NCBI GenBank assembly: GCA_023898585.1
Contig: CP060229.1
Span: forward strand, 790,587 to 854,586
DNA length: 64,000 nt
Direction of reading: 5' to 3'
From: Candidatus Nomurabacteria bacterium
GTDB lineage: Bacteria; Patescibacteriota; Minisyncoccia; Phycocordibacterales; UBA918
A program made the position numbers and the translations under genes. Positions within the stretch are counted from its first letter, which is position 1. The number at the start of each line of letters is the position of its first letter. This document shows, one piece after another, positions 22,825 through 42,473 of the stretch. The notes under the pieces were generated by a model that saw only the letters and a list, made by a program, of their open reading frames with translations, ran no database searches and had not been told where the DNA came from.

Positions 22825-23034
22825 TAGATATCTAACACTACAATCCGCCTAACCTCACAATGTGAGCACGGCATAAAATACCCGACCAAGATAGTAACCT
22901 CCTCATCAGGTTGTTGCACTCTTGGTCGGGTCGTAGCTCGAAAGGGCTACGGGCAGTTGGAAACAGCTGTCGCAGTCAACTCTGGTGAGGAGTTTTCTGT
23001 TTTATAAATCCATTCATAAAATCCCGACCAAGGT

Positions 23035-24870
23035 ATGAATACAAAAACCAAGAAAGCCACCAATGGTGGTGATAAAGCCCCAACCCAAAAACTTTCTGCA
23101 ACGAAAGGTCGAGCAATGCTTGAGTGGTATGGCAAGCGTGCTCCCAAAAGTATTGACTGGTTTCCAGCTCAAGAAAAAGAAGTGTACGGCAATCTCAAAG
23201 CCAAGGATTGGAACAAGCTATTTTGGGGTGACAACAAACAAGTACTCTCGCACTTACTCAAGGAGTATCGTGGCAAAGTTGATTTGATATACATTGACCC
23301 ACCGTTTGATAGCAAGGCGGATTACGTCAAAAAAGTGAAGCTGAACGGTCAAAAACTGCAAGGTGTGGACCAAAATGTGCTCGAAGAAATGCAGTACACC
23401 GATATGTGGGAGAAAGATGAGTACCTACAGTTTATGTACGAACGGCTCATCATTATGCGTGAACTGATGTCTGAAACGGGGTCTATTTACTTACATTGTG
23501 ACTGGCATAAAAACTCGCACTTACGCTTGATTATGGATGAAGTATTTGGAGAAGATAACTTGGTCAGAGAAGTTATATGGAACAGAGGGAATGCCTCTGG
23601 AGGTAAAGCTGGTGCAAGAAACTGGATACATACACACGACACGATACTTTTTTACGCAAAAAATAAAGAAACATCTACTTTCAACAAACAATACGACGAG
23701 TATTCTGAAGAATACATCAACGAACGCTTTACTCACACTGATGAGAAAGGTAGATATCGTTTGCAAGGTTCAGATAACAGAAAACAATATCTATCCGAGT
23801 CGAAAGGTAAAGCAGTTACTTCTGTGTGGGACCTGCCAGATATCAACGTAATGGCACTTGAGCGAACTGATTACCCCACACAAAAACCCCAAACAATACT
23901 TGAGATGATAATCAAAGCATCTTCAAACGAGGGTGATTTAGTGATGGATTGCTTTGTTGGGTCTGGGAGCACCATTGCTGTTGCTGAAAAGCTAGGTAGA
24001 CGCTGGATTGGTTGTGATATCAACAAAGGAGCTATCATTACTTCAACCGAGCGACTGCAAAAGATTGTTTCTGAAAAAGGTGATAAAACTGGCTTCAAGG
24101 TCTATAACGTCAATCACTACGATGTGTTCAATAACGATATCCAAGCCAAGCAACTACTCATTGAGACATACAAGATAGATGAACTCTCACGAGGTGATTT
24201 TGACGGTACGCTCGGGGTTGATTTCGTAAAAATCATTTCACCCAATCGAGTGTTTTCAAAGTTGGACGCTCAACACGTCATTGACGCTATCAAGAAAAGC
24301 AAAACACTCTTTACTGCCAAAACTACTAGCAAGCAAAAAGAAAGTGTCTTTGAAAACAAGGTGATTGTGATTTGTAGTGGAACCGAGTTAGATGTGCGTG
24401 ACTTTATCAAGCAAGAGAACAAAACAGGTGTCGATATCGAGGTGCGTGATATCCAATCAGATAAACGTGAGTTGGACTTCAAGAAGCCAACTGAAGCATC
24501 TATCTCATATGTTCTCAAAGGCAAGAAACTGAACGTAGAGGTGAAAGATTACTACTCACCGCTCTTGATGAAGCGATTAGAGCTAGAGAACGAGGGTCGG
24601 CTTTCAAAGAAAGAGCGTGTAAACGTATTTGATTTCCGCCAAGCGATTGAGCACGTTGTGATAGATATCAACTACGGCGAGGGTCAAAAGAAGAATGACG
24701 ATATTGCGTTCAACGCAGAAGCGTTCTTACATAAAGACAAAAAGAATGACCTTGTGTCAGTCACCCACGAGCACACCTACGAGAAGAAAGGAACATACAC
24801 GATAGCAGTCAAGATTGTGGATGTATTGGGTGAAGAATACTTTGAAACTAGAGAAATAACCGTGAAGTAA
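23035..24870 (+). CDS. mod: Type III restriction-modification methyltransferase (Mod), beta-class N6A/N4C MTase
   Basis: Motif IV DLIYIDPPFDSK precedes motif I (DCFVGSGST), which is beta-class motif order. Its 611-aa size is typical of Mod, and it is directly followed by a res-like helicase-nuclease. Confidence 0.8.
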   Translation: MNTKTKKATNGGDKAPTQKLSATKGRAMLEWYGKRAPKSIDWFPAQEKEVYGNLKAKDWNKLFWGDNKQVLSHLLKEYRGKVDLIYIDPPFDSKADYVKKVKLNGQKLQGVDQNVLEEMQYTDMWEKDEYLQFMYERLIIMRELMSETGSIYLHCDWHKNSHLRLIMDEVFGEDNLVREVIWNRGNASGGKAGARNWIHTHDTILFYAKNKETSTFNKQYDEYSEEYINERFTHTDEKGRYRLQGSDNRKQYLSESKGKAVTSVWDLPDINVMALERTDYPTQKPQTILEMIIKASSNEGDLVMDCFVGSGSTIAVAEKLGRRWIGCDINKGAIITSTERLQKIVSEKGDKTGFKVYNVNHYDVFNNDIQAKQLLIETYKIDELSRGDFDGTLGVDFVKIISPNRVFSKLDAQHVIDAIKKSKTLFTAKTTSKQKESVFENKVIVICSGTELDVRDFIKQENKTGVDIEVRDIQSDKRELDFKKPTEASISYVLKGKKLNVEVKDYYSPLLMKRLELENEGRLSKKERVNVFDFRQAIEHVVIDINYGEGQKKNDDIAFNAEAFLHKDKKNDLVSVTHEHTYEKKGTYTIAVKIVDVLGEEYFETREITVK

Positions 24871-24871
24871 T

Positions 24872-27481
24872 ATGCAGTTATTCGTTCAAGCCCTACAAAG
24901 TCGAGTGACCAGCTGGAAAGAAGCTGGTTATGCAGGCATCTACCCTGAAACTAGAAACATTCTCGCTCACATCAAGAGCAACAACTTTTTGCACGAACCA
25001 CAGCGTGAAGCCCTTGAAACATACATTTATCTCAAAGAAGTACTCGATAATCGTTCGGTCCCACAGATAGTCGCCGAGTACGCTGATAGTGACACTGACT
25101 TTTTGAAAGTCCTTGGTTTTGAGCAAGGCGTGATTGAGCTGTGGAGCGACCTATCGCCAGAGAAACGAACCGAGCGGATACAAAAGCAACTAGCTGGACT
25201 TGGCTTTGCTGAATATGGTTATGCTAACTTTGTACTCGCTCTCACAATGGGTTCTGGTAAAACCATTTTGATGGGCACGCTGATGATGTATGAGTTTATT
25301 GTGTCGTTCAATCACCCTGACGACACCCGCTTTGCCAAGAACGTGTTGGTGTTTGGACCAGCTGATACGGGTATCGTTGAGGTGCTCAAGGAAATAAAGA
25401 CCTTTGATTACAGCACGGTGATACCACGAGAATATGAAGATATCTTACTCAACATCAAATACTGGTACTTGGAGAAGCCAGAAACGCCACTCAACCCACT
25501 TGGCAACTACAACGTGATAGTGAGTAACTCATCCAAAATCATCTTGCGTAACTGGAGTGACGTAAACAAAGGTAATCGGCTCTTTGAACTACGCAAAGAA
25601 ACAGCCAACAAACGCCTGACAGCAATCCAGCAACTAGAAAATCTAGCGGTCTTTGTTGATGAAGCCCACCACTCTTATGGTGAAGATGTGTCAAAGAAGC
25701 TGAACCAATCTCGTAAAACCATTCACCACCTTGCTGAAAACACTAACGTAGTGACGGTCGCCAACCTCACTGGTACACCGTATGTGAAGAACGTGATGTT
25801 GCCAGATACGGTATACACGTTCAGCTTGCAACACGGTATTGAGAAAGGCATCTTGAAACAAGTTACGGTCAGTAATCACGGTAGTAGCAACGAGGTCCAA
25901 TCAGAGGACTTTGTGAACTCGGTCGTAGATATGTTCTGGAAAGAATATGGCGATACTCGGATTGCCGAAAAACTGCCCAAGATTGCGTTTTATACGACAG
26001 ATATAACAATGCTCGAACAGCTAGAAGAAAACCTCGACAAAGCCCTCCAGCGGCTTCATATACCCCTCTCAAAGAAGATTGTCTGGCACTCAACGTACAC
26101 AGGTGAGAAAAAGAAAGACGCTGACTATGAGTTCAATCGCCTAGATACGCCAGAAAGTGAAAAACAGTTCATTTTGCTGGTAAATAAAGGGACCGAGGGC
26201 TGGAACTGTAAGTCATTGGTAGCGGTTGCGTTGTACAAGAACTCAACCAGTAATAACTTCGTACTACAGGCATCGTGTCGCTGTTTACGGCGTATTGGTG
26301 ACAATAGCGTGAAAGCACGAGTATTCTTGTCAGATGAGAACTACAAAGTGCTCAATCGAGAGCTAGAAAACAACTTCAATACTGATATCTCGCAACTGAC
26401 TGGCAAAGTACAAAATGAAGTACAGGTTGATTTGGTGGTTGAGAAAAGACGTACGGTAGAGATAAATCGTAAGTTAGTTGAAATACTCTCATCAAGCAAT
26501 ATAAAGCCGAGCAATATAAAGATTGACCTCAAAAAGACCCCACCCAAGAAAACCATACCGTTGATACAAGAACGAGAGATTAGCTTGAGTGATGATGGTA
26601 AAGCGGTGTACCGTGACCCTATTTCTGTGCAGTCAGCTGATACTGAAACGCAAGAACGTTCATTTGGGTATTACGACATTGTTGCGTTGCTACAACAAAA
26701 AACACACTTGTCGTTCACTGCTATAAATGAGATTTTTGAAGCCAACAAGATAACCCGTGACGCACTGGTAAAAGCAGTTGAAAAGAACTACTTGGTGGTC
26801 CACGGTATCGTCAATCAAATACTCGAACAAGCTATCAGCTACGAACAAAAAGAAACCATCAAGACCGAACTGCTTGAGCTAACCAAAGCGTTTCCGTTCA
26901 AAATCAATGTCAAACGAGAGTTGCACGAAACTGATACTGAAGCGTTTGCACGTAGTTTACTGATTTATCGTGAACAAGAAGAAGCAAATGGTCACAAATC
27001 GCAGTTTGGTTTTCACGTCAATCCGTACAACTTTGACAGCACTGACGAGTTAGAGATATTCAAATATCTACGGCAAGGACTACGAGACAATGAAGCCGTG
27101 TCAGACGTTTATTTCACTGGCGGTATCACCAATGAAAAGCATAATGAGTTTTTCTTTGAATACTGGAACCCAGCTGAAGAACGAGTATCAAAGTACTTTC
27201 CAGATTTCTTGGTTGAGACAACCAGCGGTCGCTACTTGGTCCTTGAGGTGAAAGATGACCGTGCTGAAACTAAACTGGCATATGAGAACGACAAGAAACG
27301 CTATCGCAAAGGCAGTATTACAAAGGACCAACTTTCAAGCATTGTCTATGCAAAAGAAGTGGGATTTGATGAGTTCAAAGCCCTCAACAAGAACTTTGAG
27401 TACCACATCGTATTCAACGGTACTGTCGCATCTAATCAGCAAGAAGTACTCGAAAAGATTGTGAAAAATAAGCGTGGTTAG
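24872..27481 (+). CDS. res: Type III restriction endonuclease Res subunit (SF2 helicase + C-terminal PD-(D/E)xK)
   Basis: Walker A (TMGSGKT), DEAH box (VFVDEAHH), a helicase motif VI region and a C-terminal nuclease motif PDFLVE...LVLEVKD. Its start is 2 nt after the mod stop. Confidence 0.8.
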   Translation: MQLFVQALQSRVTSWKEAGYAGIYPETRNILAHIKSNNFLHEPQREALETYIYLKEVLDNRSVPQIVAEYADSDTDFLKVLGFEQGVIELWSDLSPEKRTERIQKQLAGLGFAEYGYANFVLALTMGSGKTILMGTLMMYEFIVSFNHPDDTRFAKNVLVFGPADTGIVEVLKEIKTFDYSTVIPREYEDILLNIKYWYLEKPETPLNPLGNYNVIVSNSSKIILRNWSDVNKGNRLFELRKETANKRLTAIQQLENLAVFVDEAHHSYGEDVSKKLNQSRKTIHHLAENTNVVTVANLTGTPYVKNVMLPDTVYTFSLQHGIEKGILKQVTVSNHGSSNEVQSEDFVNSVVDMFWKEYGDTRIAEKLPKIAFYTTDITMLEQLEENLDKALQRLHIPLSKKIVWHSTYTGEKKKDADYEFNRLDTPESEKQFILLVNKGTEGWNCKSLVAVALYKNSTSNNFVLQASCRCLRRIGDNSVKARVFLSDENYKVLNRELENNFNTDISQLTGKVQNEVQVDLVVEKRRTVEINRKLVEILSSSNIKPSNIKIDLKKTPPKKTIPLIQEREISLSDDGKAVYRDPISVQSADTETQERSFGYYDIVALLQQKTHLSFTAINEIFEANKITRDALVKAVEKNYLVVHGIVNQILEQAISYEQKETIKTELLELTKAFPFKINVKRELHETDTEAFARSLLIYREQEEANGHKSQFGFHVNPYNFDSTDELEIFKYLRQGLRDNEAVSDVYFTGGITNEKHNEFFFEYWNPAEERVSKYFPDFLVETTSGRYLVLEVKDDRAETKLAYENDKKRYRKGSITKDQLSSIVYAKEVGFDEFKALNKNFEYHIVFNGTVASNQQEVLEKIVKNKRG

Positions 27482-28518
27482 TTAGTCATCAAAAACCAAT
27501 ACAAGTTCTTCAAATCTTCACTTACTTTGTATTCACTTGCGTGAGACAAAGCACCCAGATACGAGTTCAAAGATTGCTCTGCTGTCTCACTGTTCGATTT
27601 GCTCTCTCTAACTTTCCTCATCAGACCTTTATACACTCGTCGTCTTGTCTTGGTTCGCAATCGCTTGTAGTGCGGTAAAACAACATAGCCAAGATAATCT
27701 GCACCGTTATGAAGTTTGTGAACAGAAACTTTATTTGGGTGCAAAGATAGCTTTAGATGTTCACCAAGAAAGTCAGATACTGGCTTCAATAGGTCAATAA
27801 GATACTGCTCATTATCAGCAACCACCACAAAGTCATCAGTGTAGCGTGCATAGTGTTTTGCTTTCACAGTGTGCTTCATAAACTGGTCAAACTCGTTCAT
27901 ATAGATATTGGCAAACAGTTGCGAGGTGAGATTGCCGATTGGTATGCCTTTTCGCTCAAACAGATTGGAAGTTCCAGCTGAAAAACTACCGATGATTTCT
28001 TCTAACAAACTCACTACTTCAACATCATCAATCACTCTATTCAAAATACCAATCAAAACACTATGGTCTACACTGTCAAAAAATCGTCTAATATCGCACT
28101 TCAGCACAAAGCACGGTTTGGTGTAGTTTTTACTCACTTTTCTTGTTGCTTTTTCAAGCCAAAGCACTCCTTTGTGCGTGCCTTTGTTCACTCGACAAGA
28201 AAAAGACGTTGCAATAAACAATGGGTCGAACAAAGGATACAGCTTGTTGTATATGGCGTGATGCAACACTCGGTCACGTACCGTTGCTTTATGAATATGT
28301 CGGCGTTTTGGGTCAGTGATGTAAAACCCTTTGTACGTACCGTGCCGATATGACTTATTTTTCAAATCCCTATGCAGTGCAAAGATATTTTGTTCAAGCT
28401 CCCACTCAAAACGCAAGACGTCTTTCTTCTTGGTTTTGCCACGACGAAATACTTTCCACGCCAAAAAGAGGTTTTTGGTGTCGGTTATTTCTGTATATAA
28501 GTTAGTAAATGTTTTCAT
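27478..28518 (-). CDS. diversity-generating retroelement (DGR) reverse transcriptase
   Basis: RT motifs are present, including YTDDFVV (YxDD) and the DGR-specific IGNLTSQLFANIY (I/LGxxxSQ), which replaces the QGxxxSP of group II RTs. It is 347-356 aa with no maturase domain. Start adjusted to MKTFTNLY. Confidence 0.85.
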   Translation of the reverse strand: MKTFTNLYTEITDTKNLFLAWKVFRRGKTKKKDVLRFEWELEQNIFALHRDLKNKSYRHGTYKGFYITDPKRRHIHKATVRDRVLHHAIYNKLYPLFDPLFIATSFSCRVNKGTHKGVLWLEKATRKVSKNYTKPCFVLKCDIRRFFDSVDHSVLIGILNRVIDDVEVVSLLEEIIGSFSAGTSNLFERKGIPIGNLTSQLFANIYMNEFDQFMKHTVKAKHYARYTDDFVVVADNEQYLIDLLKPVSDFLGEHLKLSLHPNKVSVHKLHNGADYLGYVVLPHYKRLRTKTRRRVYKGLMRKVRESKSNSETAEQSLNSYLGALSHASEYKVSEDLKNLYWFLMTN

Positions 28519-28519
28519 T

Positions 28520-28867
28520 ATGGATGAGTTTGATATACCAATTTTCAAGAAAAGCTATGACCTGTATCGTCAATTGCACGAGCTACGAATAAAAGTTTCC
28601 AAACAAGATAGACATACACTCTGGCAAAAACTAGAGAACAGCACGCTTGAAGTAATTGAGGGTATTTTACGAGCCAGCTCAATGACTAAAGATGAGAAGT
28701 TGCCAGTACTGCAAGAAGTTAGTCATAATCTCAACGTTACTCGTATATTCATTCGTCTGGCTAAAGATACGAAAGTTATTGACATAGCTAAATACGAGCA
28801 TTTTCAGAGCCAAGTCGATGAAATTGGCAGAATGCTTGGCGGTTGGATAAAACAGGTAAAAAGCTGA
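28520..28867 (+). CDS. avd: DGR accessory variability determinant (Avd), four-helix-bundle protein
   Basis: About 115 aa. The C-terminus IGRMLGGWIKQVKS closely resembles Bordetella phage bAvd (VGRILGSWIARVNRK). Its start is 1 nt from the RT start, on the opposite strand. Confidence 0.7.
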   Translation: MDEFDIPIFKKSYDLYRQLHELRIKVSKQDRHTLWQKLENSTLEVIEGILRASSMTKDEKLPVLQEVSHNLNVTRIFIRLAKDTKVIDIAKYEHFQSQVDEIGRMLGGWIKQVKS

Positions 28868-31720: not shown

Positions 31721-31772
31721 TTGAAAATAAACTTTGAATAGATATGTCACATTAGTACAATGTAAAGTAAAT

Positions 31773-33287
31773 ATGCAAAATGTGAGACTTACCAAAACCG
31801 ATTTTCTTATAGCAAAAGACTGCAACAAGAATGCATGGTTAAAGCTGCATAAACCAGATATATACAAAGCAAAGCCACTGACTGATTTTGACAAAAACAT
31901 TATTGAAACTGGCAATGAGATTGACGAGCTGGCACGGCAGCTTTTTCCTGATGGTGCATTAGTTGAGAATCGTGATGACATAGAGCTAACCAAAAAACTG
32001 ATTTCAGAACACACATCAGTTATTTATCAGCCAGTATTTTCTACAAATGAATATATGGCGGTAGCCGACATCATCGTTTGGAATGATACACAAAATGCAT
32101 ACGACTTATATGAAGTTAAGTCCTCAACAGCTGGTTCTGATGGTGAAGGACGGAGAACAAATGAATATGTTATTGACCTAGCTTTTCAAAAGAAAGTTAT
32201 CGAGATGCTAGGTGTACCTGTGAACTCATACAACCTTGTCCGCTTAAACAAAGAGTACGTACGAGGAGCAGAGCTATCAATTCCAGACTTATTTACAATT
32301 GAAGACCTGTCAGAAGAAGTAGATAAAGTGATGGCAGATATTGCATCACAAATGGCTGGAGTACGTGAGTATTTACTAAAGGAAGACGAACCAGCTGGTT
32401 ACTGTGACTGTATCTATAAAACTAAAGGAAACCATTGCACCACATCATGGTATTCACTACATGAATTGCCAGAATATTCGGTCCACCGTATTTCACGTAT
32501 CCACAAGACAAAGCTCAGTGCTTTTGTTGAAAGTGAGACTCTAGATATTCAAGCATTATCGTATGAACAAATTGAGACACTTTCTGATATCCAACAAAAA
32601 CAAGTGAACGTTGCCCAAAGTGGCAAGGTTGAGTTTGATGAGGAAGAGATTACTAAGTTCCTAGACCAATTAGAATACCCATTAGCATTTATTGATTACG
32701 AAACATATCCGTCTGCAATTCCACGTTTCCTTGGATATAAGCCATATCAACAAATACCATTTCAATTTTCACTTCATGTTATCGAAAAACCAGGGGGTGA
32801 AATGGTCCATACTGACTTTTTACATACTGACAACACAAACCCTGATGAATCTTTCTTAGAGGCGCTACAGGTTAATTTACCAGCGTCTGGGAGCATTTTG
32901 GTATGGAATCAAAGATTTGAAAAAGGTATTAATCAGCAACTAGCAGAACGCAATCCAGCATATAGCCAGTTTGTAGAGAATGTGAACGGCAGAGTAATTG
33001 ACCTCATAGAGCCATTCGATGGAAACAAAGCAGCATATTGGCACCCTGACTTTATGGGCAAGTCTTCGATTAAGTACGTTCTACCGGCACTAGTTCCTGA
33101 TATGAGTTACAAAGAACTTTTGGTGCAAGACGGGGGGATGGCCGCCGATACATGGAATCGCATTGTTACAGGACAATTTTCTGAAGAAGAAGCACAAAAA
33201 CACATAAACGGACTGCGCGAATACTGCAGTTTGGATACTTTGGCTATGGTGAAGATCTGGGAAGTTTTGGTACAAACAGTTAGCTAA
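31773..33287 (+). CDS. DUF2779-like protein: N-terminal Cas4/RecB-like PD-(D/E)xK nuclease with Cys cluster + C-terminal RNase-H-like (DEDD-type) domain
   Basis: VADIIVWND...YDLYEVKSS matches the (D...E.K) nuclease signature. A Cys cluster YCDCIYKTKGNHC is present, and the C-terminus has AFIDYETYPSAIP...PFQFSLHV. The domain naming is from memory. Confidence 0.55.
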   Translation: MQNVRLTKTDFLIAKDCNKNAWLKLHKPDIYKAKPLTDFDKNIIETGNEIDELARQLFPDGALVENRDDIELTKKLISEHTSVIYQPVFSTNEYMAVADIIVWNDTQNAYDLYEVKSSTAGSDGEGRRTNEYVIDLAFQKKVIEMLGVPVNSYNLVRLNKEYVRGAELSIPDLFTIEDLSEEVDKVMADIASQMAGVREYLLKEDEPAGYCDCIYKTKGNHCTTSWYSLHELPEYSVHRISRIHKTKLSAFVESETLDIQALSYEQIETLSDIQQKQVNVAQSGKVEFDEEEITKFLDQLEYPLAFIDYETYPSAIPRFLGYKPYQQIPFQFSLHVIEKPGGEMVHTDFLHTDNTNPDESFLEALQVNLPASGSILVWNQRFEKGINQQLAERNPAYSQFVENVNGRVIDLIEPFDGNKAAYWHPDFMGKSSIKYVLPALVPDMSYKELLVQDGGMAADTWNRIVTGQFSEEEAQKHINGLREYCSLDTLAMVKIWEVLVQTVS

Positions 33288-36200
33288 CTGTATCTAAATA
33301 GGTCACTAACTTGTTTATCTCTTGTGTGTGATTGTGCCACCATTTGGTTGACCAGATTCTATAAACATCAAATCCCAAATTCTCTAACTCCCGTTGTCTA
33401 AACATATCATATGAATAGGCTTCGTTAGATGAATGATATGTTTTCCCGTCACACTCAATAACAATTTTCCTGTCACCAATCTCAACCAAAAAATCAACTC
33501 GGAAACCACCAATTCTTTTTTGAGGTGTAACAAATTTTTCATCAATTCTCTCTATCAAGCATTCAAACACCTCTTGTTCAAATGGTGATTCGATGAGACC
33601 TTCTTTTGAATTCCTTGTTCTTGGCTGGTCATGCGAGTGTCTAAGTAAATCTTCTTTTATACTGTCTGCATCTTCAAGGTTAGATTCAGAAATTGCTTTT
33701 GCATACGAAAGATAAGCATAGAGTATGGCACGTCTGTTATTGCCATATTGGTCGAGAAGTTCCGAATAGCTTGAGTACTTATTTTGCGGTATTGATGTAC
33801 AGATATAAACTTTATCGCGTGCTCTGGTTATGAGTACGTTCAATAGTTTATATGCCTTTTCCACCAACAAAGGCCCGAATCGTTCATAAAATTTTCCATT
33901 CTGGTCATTGCCGTATGTTGTAGAAATGATAACAACATCCATTTCGTCACCTTGTATATTTTCTAGATTTTTGATGAACAGACCATTGTCTGATTCTTTT
34001 ATCTTTTCAATCTTAGTAGCAAATGAGCTATCTTTGATCATCTCCTCATTTATCCTATCTGAAATACTATCCCTCTGTGAAATATTGAATGTAGCAATAC
34101 CAACTGATGGGAATGTGCCGTCAGGATTAGATGTAATTTCTTCTCGCAAAATTCTAACAACTTCATCAATTTCTCTATAGTTTACTTTTCCTTGGCGAGA
34201 TTCAGCTTTTTCAAAAACCCCATTTACTTCAATGAACTTAATCGGCGTATATGCAAATCTCTCAGGGAAAGGTACGAGGTTGCCACCATAAAAAGCTACG
34301 TTTGAAAAATCAATCAGTGCTGGATGTTGTGAACGGTAGTGAAAGTCTAGGTACGACTGGCTTGAGTATCCAAGTGTTTCAGCATAATCCAGCAATGATT
34401 CACTGCGTGCACGCTCACTCTCTTGCAACTCTTCGTCAGTATAATCCTCACTATCCTTAACGTCTCCCTCTCTTTGGAAATAATTTGATGGTGGCATTTG
34501 GTGTTTATCTCCCGCAATCACTTTGTATTTACCACGCACAAATGATGTAAATGTGTCCTCTGTACGTAATTGACTTGCTTCGTCAAAAATCACCACATCA
34601 AAAAGACCCAACTCAAGTGGAAGCATAGAGTCAGCAGCCAAAGGGTTTGTGAGAATTACCGGAAAGATTGATGTGAACTGTTCAAAGTCTTCATGGATTA
34701 TTTTCCGTAGAGAGTTTGTTCTGCTATGAGTATTATTTTTTCTAAGGTTGTAGAGGATTCTAAAGTTGGTGCCGACATTTCTCCTGATATCTTGAGCCCA
34801 CTGATACTGAAGTATTTTGACTTGTTCACGCTTAAGTTCATTATAAACTTCAAGCAAACGCTCTAGTTCGCTGTTGTCTGTATTAAATCCATCTGAGTTT
34901 GATTCTAGTTTTTGTAGCAAGTAATAATATCTCCAGGCTCGTACTGCTGATAGCCATAAGCTAGTATCAACTTGGGATTTTATTATCCCAGAGATGACCT
35001 CTTTATATTCAGTTTTAAGTGCTTTATAGAAATATCCCCACTCATGCACTGATTGGTATAGTCCAAACTCATTTTTCATCAATGCTATCTTGTCTGAGAT
35101 AGCTTTAACATATTCCTTGTATTCTTCGATACTGTCTACCTCAATAAAATCAAGGGGTTCATCCGCTATAAATTTTTGCAGTTCTCTGTTTAGTTTTTTC
35201 TCTACTTTGAGTATTTTCTTATGTGAAGAAATGAGCTTTTTTGACAAAGCGAGGTCATTTTTTAGTGTGTCAATATTTTCCTTAAGTTGCTGTCCCGATT
35301 CAGAAAGAACAGTCTCTATAGAAGTTTCGATAGGTTCATACCCTATAAGGAGTTTGCTGCACAATGGAATCAAAGCTCTAAGCTCCTTCTTTCTTTTAGT
35401 GGATGATCTCGAGCTGCGAAACAGACCTATTGTTTTGTCTGAAAAATCTAGAGCCAAACTATCTGTTCCATTCTCTTCAAGTAGTAAGGTGAGTTTTTCT
35501 TCCACGCCCTCAAGAGCATTTTTCATCTCATCACAAATCTTTAGTGAAGCTTTTGTGTCATTACCATCTACGATGGTTTCCAGGCGATCCACTGGTTCAA
35601 AATTAGCACCCCTGTCGGTATTGACACTGGTTACGAGCCTGTAGCCAAATTCCTCCATGGATCGTAAATATTCAAGGTCCTTACTAACTACCTCAATCAT
35701 CCTTTTGAGCTCCGGTTTAATCTCTGATGGTTTTATGTCATCCAAAGAAAGAGTGTCTTCAAAGAGACTTGGCTTATCTACAATCAATTCTACTGACTGT
35801 AACGATTTTAAGAAGCCACTGACAATTGGAGCAGATGCGTTACACCTATCCAATAAGACTGCTGTTCTGTTCTTCACTTCATTTAGAGCATCTAAATCAA
35901 AGATATTCTCGCCTGAAACAGCGATATTATCATTATCTAAATCGTCAATTTCTACACTTAGTTCATCAACTAAAATATCAGTGTCGTTTAGAGATTCGAG
36001 TAACTCATCAGAGGCTTGACGAGAAAATGGTTTATCATAAATCTTTTTATCCAAAGATAAAAACGCACTGCTATTACCACCTTGCAACTTTACATACGCA
36101 TGCGATGCGTCCTTAATGACAGTCTCAAATTCAATATATTCCTCATCTGCCAGAACAAATTTCTTTGGAAAATTGTTCTTGATTCCATCCCATGAGACCT

Positions 36201-37554
36201 CATTTGATGCATGCAGGAATTCTCCAATGCTATCTTTCCATGAGACCTCATCAATCTGCGCATTTCTCTCATTAGTGTGTTTTCTATTGAAGGAGTCACG
36301 TAGCCTGCAAAACTCCTGAAATTTATTTTCGTAGTTTTTCTTCTCACCGTGTAAAAGGCCTGTTCCGTAATCCTGGGTGTTTTCGACCACACTTCTCGCT
36401 TTTTTTACAATGGTAGTTCTATCCTTGCTCACATCATCAATAAGAGCACACATGTTATCTAGCTTCAGCTTGGAGAGATTTCTATGAATCACTTGAAGTG
36501 CTGTTCGTTTTTCACACACAACGAGACACTTACCGCCATTTTCTAGCACGTTCGTAATTATCGCCGTTAACGCCTGACTTTTTCCGGTTCCAGGAGGGCC
36601 CTGAATTAGCTTTACTTCATTATCAGTCAGAGTATTTATAATCTCTTCCTTACTCGGGTCAGTAGCTACCGAGCTAACTGTTGAAGTTTGAAACTTATCC
36701 AACACTAACTTTTGGTCTTGAAAGGCTGGCAGCTCCTTGAGCATCTTTTCTGCCTGTCTAATAACTGATTCTTTCTGGGAGGTAAAAATACCAAAAACAC
36801 CTGACCACTGGATCCATGCTTCGTCTGTGGCCAAGCCATCTAGTTTATTACCGGTTGGACACTTTTCAACCCTCAGACCTTTTATGTCTATTGATGATGA
36901 CTGGGTATTAATCTGAGAAAGAATTTTTTCACAAATTTCAAACAACTCTGATTCATCAACCACATTGTCGTCCAAGTATTCTGCGTCCAATGCATCTATA
37001 GATATCTGTGAATCCCTAAGGACATGAGACCGTAAAAGTTGGTTTATATGAGCACACCTTTCGGGGTTTTTCTTAACAGTCCAATGACTTTGTTTACGGT
37101 TAGATTTTTCAATATCTAAATTCCATATCAAAAGTGGAGCTTTTACTACTTTTTCAGGATCTGTCTGGTCACGTCTTATTAAAAGTGGGTAGCCAAAACC
37201 AAAATTTCTTATTCCCGATTCAAGGTATTGGTCCTCGTCATCTATCGAAATGTTGTTTAGTTTTCTTGCAATAAAATCAAGTTTCTCCTTTTGTTTTTCT
37301 TCTATTTCCGTAAAATTAATACCCTCGAAGTTTATAGCAAACTCGAATGACTCCTCGTTAAGCAGCTTATCTAAAAATTCTTTACTGAGCCCATCTCTTA
37401 TTTCATCAAGTTCTGCAAGGTCTAAACGTGACCTCGCTCTACCTGGAATTGCATTCAAGTGAATACCCCTCCGGTTACCAACTTTGAGTTTATCTAGAAG
37501 AGACTTAATAAATACCTCTTCAATCTTGACTTGTGAAATATTTTCCTCTTCCAT
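33280..37554 (-). CDS. 1424-aa DUF4011-like / SF1 (Upf1-like) helicase / C-terminal Vsr-DUF559 endonuclease protein (Hhe-like defence candidate)
   Basis: Walker A (LIQGPPGTGKSQAL), AAA_11/AAA_12-type helicase motifs (VIFDEASQ; a Q-motif and the motif VI region), and a C-terminal DUF559/Vsr PD-(D/E)xK domain (GGFRVDFLVE...IVIECDGKTYH). Confidence 0.7.
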   Translation of the reverse strand: MEEENISQVKIEEVFIKSLLDKLKVGNRRGIHLNAIPGRARSRLDLAELDEIRDGLSKEFLDKLLNEESFEFAINFEGINFTEIEEKQKEKLDFIARKLNNISIDDEDQYLESGIRNFGFGYPLLIRRDQTDPEKVVKAPLLIWNLDIEKSNRKQSHWTVKKNPERCAHINQLLRSHVLRDSQISIDALDAEYLDDNVVDESELFEICEKILSQINTQSSSIDIKGLRVEKCPTGNKLDGLATDEAWIQWSGVFGIFTSQKESVIRQAEKMLKELPAFQDQKLVLDKFQTSTVSSVATDPSKEEIINTLTDNEVKLIQGPPGTGKSQALTAIITNVLENGGKCLVVCEKRTALQVIHRNLSKLKLDNMCALIDDVSKDRTTIVKKARSVVENTQDYGTGLLHGEKKNYENKFQEFCRLRDSFNRKHTNERNAQIDEVSWKDSIGEFLHASNEVSWDGIKNNFPKKFVLADEEYIEFETVIKDASHAYVKLQGGNSSAFLSLDKKIYDKPFSRQASDELLESLNDTDILVDELSVEIDDLDNDNIAVSGENIFDLDALNEVKNRTAVLLDRCNASAPIVSGFLKSLQSVELIVDKPSLFEDTLSLDDIKPSEIKPELKRMIEVVSKDLEYLRSMEEFGYRLVTSVNTDRGANFEPVDRLETIVDGNDTKASLKICDEMKNALEGVEEKLTLLLEENGTDSLALDFSDKTIGLFRSSRSSTKRKKELRALIPLCSKLLIGYEPIETSIETVLSESGQQLKENIDTLKNDLALSKKLISSHKKILKVEKKLNRELQKFIADEPLDFIEVDSIEEYKEYVKAISDKIALMKNEFGLYQSVHEWGYFYKALKTEYKEVISGIIKSQVDTSLWLSAVRAWRYYYLLQKLESNSDGFNTDNSELERLLEVYNELKREQVKILQYQWAQDIRRNVGTNFRILYNLRKNNTHSRTNSLRKIIHEDFEQFTSIFPVILTNPLAADSMLPLELGLFDVVIFDEASQLRTEDTFTSFVRGKYKVIAGDKHQMPPSNYFQREGDVKDSEDYTDEELQESERARSESLLDYAETLGYSSQSYLDFHYRSQHPALIDFSNVAFYGGNLVPFPERFAYTPIKFIEVNGVFEKAESRQGKVNYREIDEVVRILREEITSNPDGTFPSVGIATFNISQRDSISDRINEEMIKDSSFATKIEKIKESDNGLFIKNLENIQGDEMDVVIISTTYGNDQNGKFYERFGPLLVEKAYKLLNVLITRARDKVYICTSIPQNKYSSYSELLDQYGNNRRAILYAYLSYAKAISESNLEDADSIKEDLLRHSHDQPRTRNSKEGLIESPFEQEVFECLIERIDEKFVTPQKRIGGFRVDFLVEIGDRKIVIECDGKTYHSSNEAYSYDMFRQRELENLGFDVYRIWSTKWWHNHTQEINKLVTYLDTVS

Positions 37555-37658: not shown

Positions 37659-38405
37659 ATGTCAAAGATAAAACTCCTTTTATATGGTTCAATAACCCTA
37701 GTCTGTTTCTTGGTTGGAGGTCCACTTTTGGCCTTGCTGGCAATTTTAGTTATGGTGTACCTTCATAAAAAACGAGATGATAGTTCAAACAAAGTTGTCG
37801 CCTCTGCTGTAGGTCAAGAAATACCCACATCATCGACAAATGAAGTACCCAGTCCTATTCCAACAGATAATCGTTTTGATGCAAAATCTGACTTTAAGAG
37901 TTTGTTGACTATCTACAAAACTTTGCCTAAAGAGGACGAGGTTGATGTGAAGAAGCTTTTAACTAAAGTTAATCCAGATGCCACTGAACACAAATGTCCT
38001 TATTGTGGTACGGAACACGATTTCTCAGCTGTACGAGCGAGGAAGTGTCCGGTCTGCGGAGAGAAGATGGTTGTTAGACAGAGAAAATGGGGTCAGCCAC
38101 CATTTCTTGGCCTCCCCACAGAACGCAGTGTCTGCTCAAGTCCGTATTTTTCAACTGTTCTTAACATCCATGCCTCTGAACCATATGGTACACCTTTTGA
38201 TTCAGAACGTTCAAGAGTCACTTCCTCTTCATTAGTCTGTGGGGTGTTAAGGAGTGTAAGGTACTCTCTTGGTTCCTCTATAGGCCATGGTGACAATAGT
38301 TTCTTTTGTTGTACTGTCCCCCTCTCTCTTCTCCAGACACTTGACCATTGCCAGTCTTCTGCGTGTCGCACCAGGCTTGCCTTAAGTGCATTTCGTTCCA
38401 CGTAG
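37659..38405 (+). CDS. membrane-anchored zinc-ribbon protein (3' part of ORF probably spurious read-through)
   Basis: N-terminal TM helix, then a double CxxC zinc ribbon (CPYCGTEHD...CPVCGEKM). The last ~100 codons overlap the RAYT gene on the opposite strand, so the true gene probably ends near 38.1 kb. Confidence 0.3.
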   Translation: MSKIKLLLYGSITLVCFLVGGPLLALLAILVMVYLHKKRDDSSNKVVASAVGQEIPTSSTNEVPSPIPTDNRFDAKSDFKSLLTIYKTLPKEDEVDVKKLLTKVNPDATEHKCPYCGTEHDFSAVRARKCPVCGEKMVVRQRKWGQPPFLGLPTERSVCSSPYFSTVLNIHASEPYGTPFDSERSRVTSSSLVCGVLRSVRYSLGSSIGHGDNSFFCCTVPLSLLQTLDHCQSSACRTRLALSAFRST

Positions 38406-38767
38406 CGTATGAGGGTGAGTAGGTGTGTATCTTGCTGACATAAGAATGATTTATACCTGCCTTGATAGAGGTGACCTTGCCCTACAGTACCCTTTGCGAC
38501 ATGCCACTTGCGTGTATGTGCATTACTCAACCACCCCATAAATTGTGAAAGCACAGCATCATCTTGTGGAAAGAGTACGAGATGCCAGTGGTTTGGCATG
38601 AGGCAGTATGCAAGAAGTCGCATGTCATACTCCGCCACACCTTCGGTAAGGAGTTGCTCAAACAGCTTATAGTCGTTTGCATCATCAAAAATCTCCGCTC
38701 GCGCGTTTGCACGATTTAACACATGATACACGTGTCCTCCAACATCAACTCGCGGTGCGCGGGGCAT
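38093..38767 (-). CDS. REP-associated tyrosine transposase (RAYT / IS200-like Y1 HUH transposase)
   Basis: HUH motif MPNHWHLVL and catalytic Tyr motif YQGRYKS. Size is about 224 aa. Confidence 0.8.
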   Translation of the reverse strand: MPRAPRVDVGGHVYHVLNRANARAEIFDDANDYKLFEQLLTEGVAEYDMRLLAYCLMPNHWHLVLFPQDDAVLSQFMGWLSNAHTRKWHVAKGTVGQGHLYQGRYKSFLCQQDTHLLTLIRYVERNALKASLVRHAEDWQWSSVWRRERGTVQQKKLLSPWPIEEPREYLTLLNTPQTNEEEVTLERSESKGVPYGSEAWMLRTVEKYGLEQTLRSVGRPRNGG

Positions 38768-38933
38768 ATGTAGATTGTATCATAAATGGTGGCTGACCCC
38801 ATTTTCTTGACCCCATTTTTCATTTTTGCTTCCCGAAGAAATTATTGGTATTTTAATTGATACACAACGAGTGTCAAATTTATCAACAGGTATGTTGATT
38901 TTATGTACACAATAAAGTATACTGATAATACTT

Positions 38934-39608
38934 ATGAGCACACAATACGCAGAGCTATTGCGTGGTATTCGTGTCGAAAAGGGCTTCTCGCAGTCAGAAT
39001 TAGCTGAGAAGCTCAGTCTTTCACGTGCCTCTTACATAGCGGTTGAACAAGGTAAACGTGAACTAACACTTAGTGAATGTGAGAAGCTTTCACAAGTTTT
39101 GGGTGTACCTATTAACGATATTGAGAGAGGAGAGATTCCTAACTACGAGAAGTATAAGCAGATGATTTTGCTGTACTTACGAATGAATAAATTCCTTACT
39201 AAAACAAAGCTTGCCAAGCTTCTCTACTTTGCTGATTTTGCTTGGTACTACAACCATCTCAAAAGCATGAGTGGGATGGAATACAGAAAAATTCAATACG
39301 GACCTGTCGCTGACACCTACTTTAGACTCATTGATGAGATGAGTGATGCTGGGGAGATAAATATCAAGCTTACAGAAGAGGGTGCGATGCACATTTCCGA
39401 AACAAAAGCAGGTAAAAAGTATGTAGTTGATCAGATCAGTAAAGAAGAGTCCGCGCTTATGAAGAAAATTAACAATAAATGGAAAGGCAAACGAACTGCT
39501 GAAATTGTTTCTTTTACGCACAAGCAAATGCCGTACATGTTTGCCGATGATAATGAAATAGTTTCATATGAAGTCTTTGGGCAAGAAAACCCCGATGAAA
39601 TTTACTGA
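38934..39608 (+). CDS. HTH(XRE)-Panacea(DUF4065) fusion protein, antitoxin-like
   Basis: N-terminal HTH (GFSQSELAEKLSLSRASYIAVEQG). The central region LAKLLYFADFAWYYNHLKSMSGMEYRKIQYGPV resembles the Panacea/SocA-like domain. Confidence 0.6.
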   Translation: MSTQYAELLRGIRVEKGFSQSELAEKLSLSRASYIAVEQGKRELTLSECEKLSQVLGVPINDIERGEIPNYEKYKQMILLYLRMNKFLTKTKLAKLLYFADFAWYYNHLKSMSGMEYRKIQYGPVADTYFRLIDEMSDAGEINIKLTEEGAMHISETKAGKKYVVDQISKEESALMKKINNKWKGKRTAEIVSFTHKQMPYMFADDNEIVSYEVFGQENPDEIY

Positions 39609-39613
39609 TTCGT

Positions 39614-40006
39614 ATGAAATATCAAGTAGTTTTCAAACCATTCACCGAAAGACACCACATCAAGTCATTCGCTAAAAAATATCAAGGTGCATGGGGTAAA
39701 ACACTAAAGGCTTTAACGATTGAGTTTACTTTTGTTCAACTCTTGTTTGAAAAAACCATCGCTGAGATTATTTGTGTCTCGCCAGATAATGATATAAAAA
39801 TTTGTAAAACAGAGTTTAAAATCCTTGGAACACAAGTGTCTCGTCACGACTCCGGGTGTCGTTGCGTTATAGCTATTCACGAGAGTAAGAAACTCGTGAA
39901 TGTGTTGTTGGTTTACAATAAGGGAGATGTTGACGGGAAAAACGAGACAGCATGGTGGACTAATCTTGTGAAAGATACTTATCCAGAATATCGGGATATT
40001 CTTTAG
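39614..40006 (+). CDS. hypothetical protein, candidate toxin partner of the Panacea-domain protein
   Basis: 130 aa, starting 6 nt after the Panacea gene stop. No recognisable family; the toxin role is inferred only from context. Confidence 0.35.
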   Translation: MKYQVVFKPFTERHHIKSFAKKYQGAWGKTLKALTIEFTFVQLLFEKTIAEIICVSPDNDIKICKTEFKILGTQVSRHDSGCRCVIAIHESKKLVNVLLVYNKGDVDGKNETAWWTNLVKDTYPEYRDIL

Positions 40007-40103: not shown

Positions 40104-40141
40104 CGTGACTGTCACCGTTTTCCGTGACTGTCACCGTTTTC
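40104..40141. repeat. REP-like tandem repeat 2 x 19 bp (CGTGACTGTCACCGTTTTC), palindromic core GTGACTGTCAC
   Basis: Exact tandem duplication. Related copies occur at 41675-41698 (reverse complement) and 42403-42473. Confidence 0.7.
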
Positions 40142-40172: not shown

Positions 40173-41708
40173 TCAAAAATTTTTCAACAGACGTTTCTGT
40201 AGCTCTATCACTTGTTTCAGTATTTCAATAATTCGTAACAAGATGCCTGTTCTTGAATCAGGGTCGATATTTGCGAGTACTGGTCCCACTATTGATTCTT
40301 CTCTTGGAATAGTTTTAATACGAGTTCCCCCACCACTTCCTGAAGATTGAGAAACCGCTTCTTGTGGCTCATCGCCAGCGCTGAAAGTAGTGGCATGATT
40401 AGCTAGAAAAACGCACTGTCCAGAGGTGACTAAACAGGTTGTTTCAAGATCCCAAGTTGACGAACCTTCTTGCTGAGAGTACACGTTAAGTGTCTGTCCG
40501 TTGTAAGTAGTGCTGACAGGTATGGTAAGTGTCGCATTCTGTGTAAAAGAAAGATTGAGGTTGGTAAGTCCAACCGAGATCGCTCCGGCAATATCTCCGA
40601 CATAAGCACTTTGGAGAGCCGAAGTAACGTTGTTGATAGTAAAATTCAGCAAGTCCATTGCCCCAGCATCAGATCTTGTTAATACGGTACCGCTTGGGAA
40701 AGTGATTGAGGCACCACCAGCCACAACTGAATATGGAACATTAAAGGTAACTGCTGTTGTGTTGTTCGGGTTACCACCGGTTACTGTGATTTGTCCCCCG
40801 TCGATATCTAGCTCAATATCCGCCCCGGTTGAGCCATAACAATCTCCGCTGGTGGTAAAAGTGGCCAGCGAAGATGTACCGACCTGGGAGTAGTTAGATT
40901 CAGTGGATTCTAATTGATAGTGATATGTGGTACAGGTGTCGAGTCCGGTAAGAGTTATGTTGTGTGAGGTGGTACCAACACCGGTTGCTTTGATGCCAAG
41001 CGAATCGGTAGTACCGTAGTTAACAATTGAAGTTCCTGAAAGATTGGTAGACCATGTAATCGTGGCAGTGGAAGTGCCGGTCGAAGTAGCGACTGAACTG
41101 AACTGCGGAGCACCGGCGACACCACGCCAGACGGTTGTGTTATCGGATACATAAAGTACCAATCCGTCGTCTGAGCCGGCGATAAAGTCACAAGAGCAAC
41201 CACTCATATCAGTCTCCACAGTCCAGGTTGCTCCGGTAGTGGTTGATGTTAGTACTCCGTCGTAGTAGTCAGAAACAGCAACTCTTTCTCCATTGAATGA
41301 AACTGTCATGTACGAAAACTCGACACCAGAAACTGTCGATGTGCTCCAATTAGCACCACTATCAACCGATACGTGCATTGTGTCCCACATATCATTTAAG
41401 AATAGTTTCGACCCATCAGCAGAAGAAACGATGTCCCACCAAACATAGTCGTAGTATCTTTCTGTCCATGTAGTGCCGTAATCAGTTGAGGTGTAAACAA
41501 AACCAAAATCAAAATCGATAACAGCAATTTTTGATCCGTCGGCAGAAACTGTCACTGCGATCCATTCTGCTGTGGTGGTGGGTTGTGTTTCAGTCCAGGT
41601 GGCGCCCGAATTAGTAGAAACATAAACATGACCTCCTCCGCCAGTTGTCTGAACTGCTGTTACCAGCACGCGGTAAACCGGGACAGTCACGGTTTTTTCC
41701 CAATTCAT
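40173..41708 (-). CDS. BNR/Asp-box repeat protein with fibronectin type III domain (surface/secreted)
   Basis: Four SxDxGxTW Asp-box motifs (STNSGATWTE, STDYGTTWTE, SVDSGANWS, TTTGATWTV) and an FN3-like block (ITWSTNLSGTSIVNYGTT...TTYHYQLEST). The annotated N-terminus overlaps a REP-like repeat, so the start is uncertain. Confidence 0.55.
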   Translation of the reverse strand: MNWEKTVTVPVYRVLVTAVQTTGGGGHVYVSTNSGATWTETQPTTTAEWIAVTVSADGSKIAVIDFDFGFVYTSTDYGTTWTERYYDYVWWDIVSSADGSKLFLNDMWDTMHVSVDSGANWSTSTVSGVEFSYMTVSFNGERVAVSDYYDGVLTSTTTGATWTVETDMSGCSCDFIAGSDDGLVLYVSDNTTVWRGVAGAPQFSSVATSTGTSTATITWSTNLSGTSIVNYGTTDSLGIKATGVGTTSHNITLTGLDTCTTYHYQLESTESNYSQVGTSSLATFTTSGDCYGSTGADIELDIDGGQITVTGGNPNNTTAVTFNVPYSVVAGGASITFPSGTVLTRSDAGAMDLLNFTINNVTSALQSAYVGDIAGAISVGLTNLNLSFTQNATLTIPVSTTYNGQTLNVYSQQEGSSTWDLETTCLVTSGQCVFLANHATTFSAGDEPQEAVSQSSGSGGGTRIKTIPREESIVGPVLANIDPDSRTGILLRIIEILKQVIELQKRLLKNF

Positions 41709-41713
41709 ATGTT

Positions 41714-42379
41714 CTAATACTTTGTCTTTGGCCTCTCTCCACTGCGTAAGGTGGTTTCCAAACTATACTCCTTGACCATGGCGTCCACCCACCTATCTCT
41801 ACCGTAAGGAGCTCCTTTGTTCACCGAGTTACGAATAGCATACAAGGAGTCTTCTCGTTCGGAAGCATTGATCCACTCAAAGTATCTTTCAGGTAGGGGC
41901 ACTGGTGACTCGCTCAGTAGCTTTGTATCAGCCCGTTTTCGCAACTGCGCACTTCCCCACTGCCATTCCTCACAAGTCTTAACCAGCTTAGCTCTGACAG
42001 GGTTTCTTTCCACATACTTAAGTAGAGTTAGAAAGTAGTCATCTTTATCAACCATAAATGATTTATATCTGCCTTGATAGAGAGGACCGTGGCCGATGGT
42101 CTTTGTTCTAGAGTGCACTCGTCTTGTATGAGAGTTTGTGAGTCGATGCATGAAAGCACCAAGGTCACCGTCAATTCTGGGATGAAGAATCAAGTGCCAA
42201 TGATTTGGCATTATCGTGTACCCTAGAACACGCATGTCCGTGATCTCTTTAGCTTCAAGTAGTAGGTCTGTGAAGAGTTGATAGTCACTACGTTCACTGA
42301 AGATCTGCAGACGACCGGTTGCACGATTGATGACGTGATAAATATTGTTCGCTACATCGACCCTAGCTAGACGTGGCAT
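41714..42379 (-). CDS. REP-associated tyrosine transposase (RAYT), second paralogue
   Basis: HUH motif MPNHWHLIL and Tyr motif YQGRYKS. It is co-linear with the first RAYT. Confidence 0.8.
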   Translation of the reverse strand: MPRLARVDVANNIYHVINRATGRLQIFSERSDYQLFTDLLLEAKEITDMRVLGYTIMPNHWHLILHPRIDGDLGAFMHRLTNSHTRRVHSRTKTIGHGPLYQGRYKSFMVDKDDYFLTLLKYVERNPVRAKLVKTCEEWQWGSAQLRKRADTKLLSESPVPLPERYFEWINASEREDSLYAIRNSVNKGAPYGRDRWVDAMVKEYSLETTLRSGERPKTKY

Positions 42380-42402
42380 GGCAATATTATACCACAGAGA
42401 TC

Positions 42403-42473
42403 AGGGATAAACCGTGACTGTCCCCGTTTCTGCGTTTCTTTCCAGGGATAAACCGTGACTGTCCCCGTTTCTT
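42403..42473. repeat. REP-like direct repeats 2 x 30 bp (CAGGGATAAACCGTGACTGTCCCCGTTTCT)
   Basis: Two exact copies separated by 11 bp, upstream of RAYT-2. The second copy provides the premature stop of the IS3 orfB remnant. Confidence 0.7.

Follow-up and report, generated by a model that had tools for sequence, protein, structure and literature searches.

What is the small protein encoded directly behind a helix-turn-helix (HTH) Panacea gene in Candidatus Nomurabacteria bacterium, and what do the two genes do together? The pair lies within a 64,000-nt stretch of contig CP060229.1 (assembly GCA_023898585.1, positions 790,587 to 854,586), hereafter the window, and consists of panA, whose 224-aa antitoxin-like product combines an XRE-type HTH with a Panacea (DUF4065) domain, and panT, which encodes a protein of 130 aa. 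An earlier sequence-only reading had taken this tight pair for a toxin-antitoxin system and had considered that the 130-aa partner might represent a new toxin domain. Our analyses favor the first of these proposals and speak against the second: the pair is best read as a bicistronic type II PanAT module, the toxin of which belongs, as a highly divergent member nearest to HigB-2, to the RelE/ParE superfamily and is probably an mRNA endonuclease. We assign this reading a probability of about 0.72, in which toxicity, ribonuclease (RNase) activity, neutralization by binding and autoregulation are the properties that we infer.

The domain assignment of PanA proved sound. Both HTH_3 and SocA_Panacea (PF13274) are found above their Pfam gathering scores; in the profile search for DUF4065 that the sequence-only reading had proposed, the Panacea domain scores 56.8 bits, with the gathering threshold at 25.7 bits, and the match spans positions 1-112 of the 113-position profile. 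The HTH is most like those of restriction-modification controller proteins, HipB and PezA. In addition to the two domains, PanA carries a C-terminal tail ending in ...QENPDEIY, in which Q217, E218 and P220 are invariant in an alignment of 35 orthologues and which is conserved to the same degree as the domains themselves. By analogy with the 'linear' neutralization described for other PanAs (PMC10440598), this tail is a candidate neutralizing element. A structure model of PanA from the single sequence was poor, with a predicted local distance difference test score (pLDDT) of 54. Between the TGA of panA and the ATG of panT there are 5 nt (TTCGT), and the second ATG thus begins 6 nt past the last base of the stop codon, as had been noted before.

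The 130-aa protein is the product of a real, conserved gene. It was rightly said to be of no known family, as it had zero matches in Pfam, NCBIfam, PADLOC and PHROGs, and a phmmer search of solved structures returned no match either. A search of 5.8 billion proteins, in turn, yielded more than 120 clusters at 90% identity that are 49-92% identical to the 130-aa protein; all are approximately 130 aa long, none has a Pfam domain, and the informative names among them all refer to Parcubacteria or Patescibacteria metagenome-assembled genomes. A profile search enlarged the family to at least 511 clusters (90% identity), and an exhaustive hidden Markov model search of 1.84 billion representatives gave 210 clusters at 50% identity. 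When one genome per GTDB species was scanned with a profile of close homologues (A1), the family was found in at least 149 genomes. From these 149, 80 loci were kept, and their labels are overwhelmingly those of Patescibacteria (Paceibacterota, Parcubacteria, Nomurabacteria, Kaiserbacteria, 'Saccharibacteria' and others).

The arrangement of the two genes was compared over 90 loci, namely the 80 from species genomes and 10 more found by exact or near look-ups. An HTH-Panacea homologue lies immediately upstream of the toxin homologue, on the same strand, in 89 of the 90. The distance between the two genes is -1 to 15 nt, save at L004, where a truncated PanA match leaves a gap of 99 nt. The neighborhoods differ entirely between loci, with genes for a translesion polymerase and an aquaporin at one, a MazG/SLFN-helicase/HNH cluster at another and genes for RNase H and a phosphodiesterase at a third. 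A branch that is only 26-30% identical to the toxin of the window likewise retains the HTH-Panacea partner. The pairwise identities of PanA and toxin co-vary over 73 loci (Mantel r 0.67, a value reached by 0 of 999 permutations), indicating that the two proteins have been inherited together. At the single locus without an intact antitoxin, L068 (2814-3387), no more is left of panA than its ~14 final codons (...LITQEDPDYVY), and the toxin of this locus bears W27R and W115R at sites that are invariant in the close family. This single case fits the decay of a toxin following the loss of its antidote, and the gene may be a decaying orphan. Taken together, the conserved two-gene arrangement, independent of neighborhood, is the one expected of a PanA, and the toxin-antitoxin reading of the tight pair holds across varied contexts. 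Judged by sequence comparison, the pair is a genuine and strongly conserved PanAT-type toxin-antitoxin module with a presumably toxic second product.

To what kind of toxin the 130-aa protein belongs is indicated by its predicted structure. With 47 homologues as input, AlphaFold2 gave a confident model (pLDDT 90.1, predicted template modelling score 0.85), in which a strand at 4-7 is followed by helices at 9-22 and 26-39 and by a further, short one, then by four strands (50-55, 61-68, 82-89, 94-102) and a final helix at 111-122. This beta-alpha-alpha-(alpha)-beta4-alpha topology is that of the RelE/ParE (BECR) fold, with its N-terminal strand, two helices, antiparallel sheet of three to five strands and C-terminal helix. 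The best Foldseek match in the PDB was archaeal RelE (1wmi_A; E 3e-4, probability 1.0, target-normalized TM score 0.73), followed by Vibrio cholerae HigB-2, Thermus thermophilus RelE, Mycobacterium tuberculosis RelE2 and RelE1, PfiT, HP0892, YoeB and Escherichia coli HigB; toxins of the RelE/HigB/YoeB/ParE superfamily account for 26 of the 31 leading matches. The viral library BFVD, also searched with Foldseek, gave nothing informative. The structure prediction that the earlier reading had asked for therefore reveals no new fold.

The sequence points in the same direction. A profile of 79 diverse members (A2) found HigB-2 as its sole coherent match among 177,635 PDB sequences (E 0.019), whereas the A1 profile found no match there, so that only the more diverse profile reached HigB-2. 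In hhalign, A2 aligned with the HigB-2 family alignment at 76% probability (E 2.3e-5, 60 columns), compared with 0.2% for an unrelated control alignment. HigB-2 itself matches PF06296; single-sequence Pfam scans of the 79 members gave noise, save for one member that matched PF06296 at E 0.014. We also considered a new toxin domain for the 130-aa protein, as the sequence-only reading had suspected; this is not supported, given the RelE/ParE fold, the HigB-2 profile match and the HigB-2-like catalytic residues. The 130-aa protein is thus most likely a very divergent RelE/HigB-2-type toxin candidate of the RelE/ParE superfamily, with a sequence link that is weak but specific.

RelE carries the active-site residues K52, K54, R61, R81 and Y87. 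In HigB-2, the site is RelE-like, and alanine substitutions of R51, R64, Y82 and K84 cut activity 170- to 3000-fold (Hadzi et al. 2017, PMC5416850). The hhalign alignment places R83, Y101 and K103 of the 130-aa protein onto R64, Y82 and K84 of HigB-2, and K69 onto R51. Among the 79 diverse members, R83, K103 and K65 are each present in 78, and Y101 in 77, with phenylalanine in the other two; E111 does not vary at all, and S76 and the basic character of position 78 (K/R/H) hardly do. Three of the four HigB-2 catalytic residues are hence near-invariant in the family, in keeping with the basic and aromatic character of a RelE-type site. The near-invariance of R83, Y101 and K103 argues for a RelE-type RNase rather than a ParE-type gyrase poison. 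As K69 is variable over the wider family, K65 is more likely to be the conserved basic residue of this strand.

Several observations weigh against this assignment. The sequence similarity to HigB-2 is weak and extends over no more than ~60 residues; against E. coli RelE alone, hhalign gave a non-significant 1.8%; and at the cut-offs of the curated models PF06296, PF05016, PF06769, PF05015 and related ones, the 130-aa protein has no match. The assignment of the fourth catalytic position is ambiguous between K69, which varies, and K65, which is conserved but is aligned to HigB-2 across a gap. A small number of further family members likewise have arginine at positions 27 and 115, which weakens the case of the decayed locus L068. 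Finally, the RelE/ParE fold is also found in gyrase poisons.

That last point leads to the possibility of a ParE-like gyrase poison, or of some other non-RNase activity carried by the RelE/ParE fold of the 130-aa protein. The fold is common to ParE toxins, the ParE-type PfiT and a Mesorhizobium ParE-type complex are among the Foldseek matches, and the published Panacea dataset includes partners with ParE domains (PMC8832971). However, the best matches in structure and sequence are RNases (aRelE, HigB-2, RelE, RelE2 and YoeB), and the catalytic arginine, tyrosine and lysine of RelE and HigB-2 are near-invariant in the family, so that we consider such an activity improbable. Still less probable is that the pair is no toxin-antitoxin system at all, in which case the partner would assist an HTH regulator as a non-toxic cofactor or co-repressor, or that PanA works as a protease adaptor, as in the type VI SocAB. 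The Panacea domain was originally recognized in the ClpXP adaptor SocA, and PanA has a faint match to the SocA equivalog of NCBIfam (NF047745, E 0.0063); yet the score of 16.2 bits is far under the cut-off of 190, tested PanA proteins work through direct complex formation, the fold of the partner is that of a toxin, its catalytic residues are conserved, and at the sole locus without PanA the toxin is mutated at conserved positions.

A different question is what the module is for. It might be an abortive-infection or phage-defense system in which Panacea senses a phage cue and frees or activates a RelE-like effector, rather than a classical addiction or stress module. The pair lies within a run of defense-type and mobile genes in the window, one homologous locus lies beside a MazG-like/SLFN-helicase/HNH cluster and another beside a type ISP restriction-modification enzyme, and a sensory role has been proposed for Panacea (Ernits et al. 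2023). There is also the precedent of CapRel, a fused toxin-antitoxin that is activated without dissociation of its antitoxin element; its direct activation by a phage capsid protein is reported by Zhang et al. 2022 (Nature). Other homologous loci, on the other hand, are flanked by housekeeping genes, and the family was absent from the IMG/VR viral contigs searched. We regard this role as possible, though with rather less than even odds; it is in any case compatible with a toxin-antitoxin mechanism and would alter only the biological role. A more far-reaching version, which we think unlikely, is that the Patescibacteria-wide branch of the RelE/ParE superfamily that Pfam does not see is itself a phage-sensing module, in which Panacea detects an infection cue and the target or specificity of the effector is not canonical A-site cleavage. 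The extended loop 69-81, the helix with invariant E111, T112 and W115, and the helix with conserved K17 and K21 are not present in RelE or HigB-2. If true, it would offer a tractable way into the immunity of the candidate phyla radiation and of ultra-small episymbiotic bacteria.

Under the preferred PanAT reading, the 130-aa toxin would be a ribosome-dependent mRNA endonuclease that arrests translation, with an active site formed by a lysine on the central strand (K65 and/or K69) together with R83, Y101 and K103. PanA would neutralize it by direct binding through the Panacea domain and/or the C-terminal tail, and a dimer of its N-terminal XRE HTH would repress the operon at dyads overlapping the -35 element and the spacer. 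The mRNA would have little or no leader, and translation of the toxin would be coupled, given the gap of -1 to 15 nt. In view of the defense-island setting, the role of the module is plausibly phage defense or island stabilization.

The upstream region is consistent with such a regulation. A promoter scan and a palindrome search located -35 and -10 elements with a 17-nt spacer and a perfect palindrome that overlaps the -35 (Table 1). The non-coding architecture ATGTCAA..TTAt.aACA....ATGTTTGa.TTtTttACAta..t.taTATACT..a..TATG recurs at 70 distinct loci, among which PanA identity falls as low as 45%; in more than 90% of the sequences, the -10 and the cores ATGT and ACA agree. Together, the ATGT/ACA(T) cores make up nested dyads centered at the -35 region, and the HTH may autorepress at this putative operator overlapping the promoter. 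Across the 70 related loci, the panA ATG follows the conserved -10 by 6-10 nt, and there is no Shine-Dalgarno sequence, which suggests that the panA transcript is essentially leaderless or has a very short leader across Patescibacteria. A scan of the window found no terminator-like site 3' of the toxin gene.

Among known systems, Panacea antitoxins have been paired with dozens of toxin clusters, and HTH N-terminal domains occur in 343 PanAs (Kurata et al. 2022, PMC8832971); those tested bind and neutralize many unrelated toxins by direct complex formation (PMC8832971, PMC10440598). The closest counterpart is T14 (pT15) in Dataset S1 of that study, with antitoxin-then-toxin order, an HTH-PanA and a toxin without a CDD hit for which HHpred gave HigB-2 at 99.7%, then RelE, YoeB and ParE. 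Its hosts are Candidatus Saccharimonas aalborgensis, a TM7 genome, Cryosericum, Flexibacter, several Pedobacter and methanogens, all marked 'notest', and T28 is a further RelE/ParE-like partner in the same dataset, which was built from RefSeq genomes and in which, among the rows listed, none is labelled Parcubacteria or Patescibacteria (PMC8832971). Compared by description only, our pair resembles T14 in gene order, in the HTH on PanA and in its HigB-2/RelE-like toxin, whereas the Saccharibacteria rows of T14 have an offset of -11 and the window pair a 5-nt gap. The distant branch at 26-30% identity encodes toxins of 140 aa (L091, 3001-3423; L092, 3001-3426); in L091, an in-frame TTG at 3016 would overlap panA by 11 nt, the same offset as in those rows. 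This overlap is the only hint that the window family may be T14 or a sister family. As T14 was catalogued with an HTH-PanA and a HigB-2/RelE-like toxin, this kind of pair is already known. The best-ranked hits of a literature search included no paper on an HTH-Panacea/RelE-like module in Patescibacteria, and a 2025 review on RelE/ParE defense toxins does not mention Panacea.

V. cholerae HigB-2/HigA-2 (PF06296; PDB 5JA8, 8A0X) shares with the 130-aa protein the RelE/ParE fold with its C-terminal helix and is its best and only coherent sequence-profile match, at ~12-13% identity. The 130-aa toxin exceeds HigB-2 by 20 residues; both its N-terminal helices and the loop between its central strands (69-81) are longer. 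HigA-2 likewise has an HTH but no Panacea domain and neutralizes via a disordered N-terminal segment, and the higBA order is toxin first, whereas that of the window pair is antitoxin first. The archaeal aRelE-aRelB (1WMI) and E. coli RelBE systems have the common fold together with an antitoxin-first, antitoxin-autoregulated operon, and the RelBE mechanism, mRNA cleavage at the ribosomal A site, is presumed by analogy for the 130-aa toxin. E. coli RelE nevertheless has no detectable sequence similarity to it, and RelB, a ribbon-helix-helix or disordered wrap-around antitoxin, is unrelated to the HTH-Panacea architecture of PanA. SocAB of Caulobacter, a type VI system and the source of the founding Panacea protein, has PF13274 in common with PanA, but SocB is a DnaN-binding toxin unrelated to RelE, and SocA is a ClpXP adaptor, not an HTH-bearing binder-inhibitor.

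Table 1. Positions within the window of the gene pair, its upstream region and the surrounding genes and repeats
Feature	Position	Strand	Remarks
panA	38934-39608	+	224-aa open reading frame; XRE HTH and Panacea/DUF4065; antitoxin-like
XRE-type HTH (HTH_3) of PanA	38961-39119 (aa 10-62)	+	Pfam E 1.1e-12
Panacea/DUF4065 (SocA_Panacea, PF13274) of PanA	39210-39536 (aa 93-201)	+	Pfam E 5.1e-15
panT	39614-40006	+	130-aa open reading frame; divergent RelE/ParE-superfamily (HigB-2-like) toxin candidate
Promoter and putative operator region	38871-38923	+	Promoter scan and palindrome search
GTGTCAA	38871-38877	+	Promoter region of panA
Perfect palindrome ATCAACA-N4-TGTTGAT	38882-38899	+	Overlaps the -35
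-35 element TTGATT	38895-38900	+	Promoter scan
GTACACA	38905-38911	+	Promoter region of panA
-10 element TATACT	38918-38923	+	Promoter scan; panA ATG 10 nt further on
RAYT-like Y1 (HUH) transposase gene 1	38093-38767	-	Y1_Tnp 1.5e-15; REP_Tyr_transpos 69.6 bits
Perfect 24-nt inverted repeat around gene 1	38082-38105 / 38784-38807		
RAYT-like Y1 transposase gene 2	41714-42379	-	Y1_Tnp/IS200-like; REP_Tyr_transpos 69.1 bits
Inverted REP-like repeats around gene 2	41675-41719 / 42385-42429		Second copy at 42443-42472
Two tandem 19-nt REP-like units, CGTGACTGTCACCGTTTTC	40104-40141	+	Shortly after the end of panT; of one family with the repeats that bracket gene 2
511-aa Thr/Ser-rich protein gene	40173-41708	-	Between REP-like repeats
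248-aa open reading frame	37659-38405	+	Weak zinc-ribbon matches
LOOT RNA motif (Rfam RF03000)	22846-22971	+	Full-length; 80.9 bits against a gathering score of 46.4
Type III methyltransferase	23035-24870		PADLOC MTase_III 3e-70
ResIII helicase	24872-27481		
Reverse transcriptase	27478-28548	-	PADLOC RT 1.8e-50; also retron/DRT/UG-type matches
DUF2779 protein	31734-33287		
1424-aa superfamily 1 helicase with a DUF559/MTES_1575 nuclease end	33280-37554		PDC-S37 3.5e-132, ProA 1.4e-126, Hhe 5e-93, all under the NCBIfam cut-offs

The pair had further been described as lying between two RAYT genes. The flanking genes do have a Y1_Tnp/IS200-like domain and inverted repeats around them, but their scores against the NCBIfam model that they match best, REP_Tyr_transpos (Table 1), remain under its 80-bit cut-off; the label is thus reasonable, though not in the strict sense. 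The two are 46% identical to each other and show HUH motifs (NHWHLVL and NHWHLIL) and YVERN motifs. Two families of hairpin-forming REP-like repeats of ~20 nt, AAATGGTGGCTGACCCCATTT and AAACCGTGACTGTCCCCGTTT, each bracket one of the RAYT-like genes in inverted orientation, and the second family also occurs in further tandem copies flanking the gene of the 511-aa protein. The families have 2 and 5 copies within the window, compared with ~0.1 expected (0.13 for the 5-copy family). As homologous pairs elsewhere have no RAYT neighbors, the RAYT-like genes are local and outside the module, and the same observation ruled out the pair as their cargo. A compositional island was also ruled out: the G + C content of the pair (38-41%) equals that of the surrounding genome, and it is higher (45-47%) only in the RAYT-like genes and the segment of the 511-aa gene.

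The 511-aa gene itself (G + C about 46%, above its surroundings) contains internal repeats of ~245 nt (direct repeat families D3-D5), and its product has a weak match to the N-terminal, fibronectin-like domain of purple acid phosphatases and a BNR-like motif. The 3' part of the 248-aa open reading frame overlaps the opposite-strand RAYT-like gene; this frame was not called by gene callers on identical metagenome contigs and is probably over-extended or spurious.

On a broader scale, the region from 23 to 43 kb of the window reads as a defense/mobile island, judged from its gene content. It begins with the type III methyltransferase, directly upstream of which lies the LOOT RNA motif, and continues with the ResIII helicase and the reverse transcriptase; two unknown genes lie between the latter and the DUF2779 protein, which is followed by the 1424-aa helicase. 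An IS3 element after the RAYT-like genes closes the island order.

What is new here is the annotation of a widespread family; neither a new toxin domain nor a new mechanism is revealed. The annotation proposes a testable function for proteins named merely 'hypothetical' everywhere, in at least 511 clusters (90% identity) and at least 149 species-level genomes, and exposes a gap in the coverage of the RelE/ParE clan by Pfam. K65, R83, Y101 and K103, together with the conserved putative operator and promoter, provide concrete experimental handles. In the Patescibacteria, with their genomes of ~1 Mb and their little-known toxin-antitoxin and defense biology, a Panacea scaffold and a toxin that appears to be of the RelE type move together as a fixed unit throughout.

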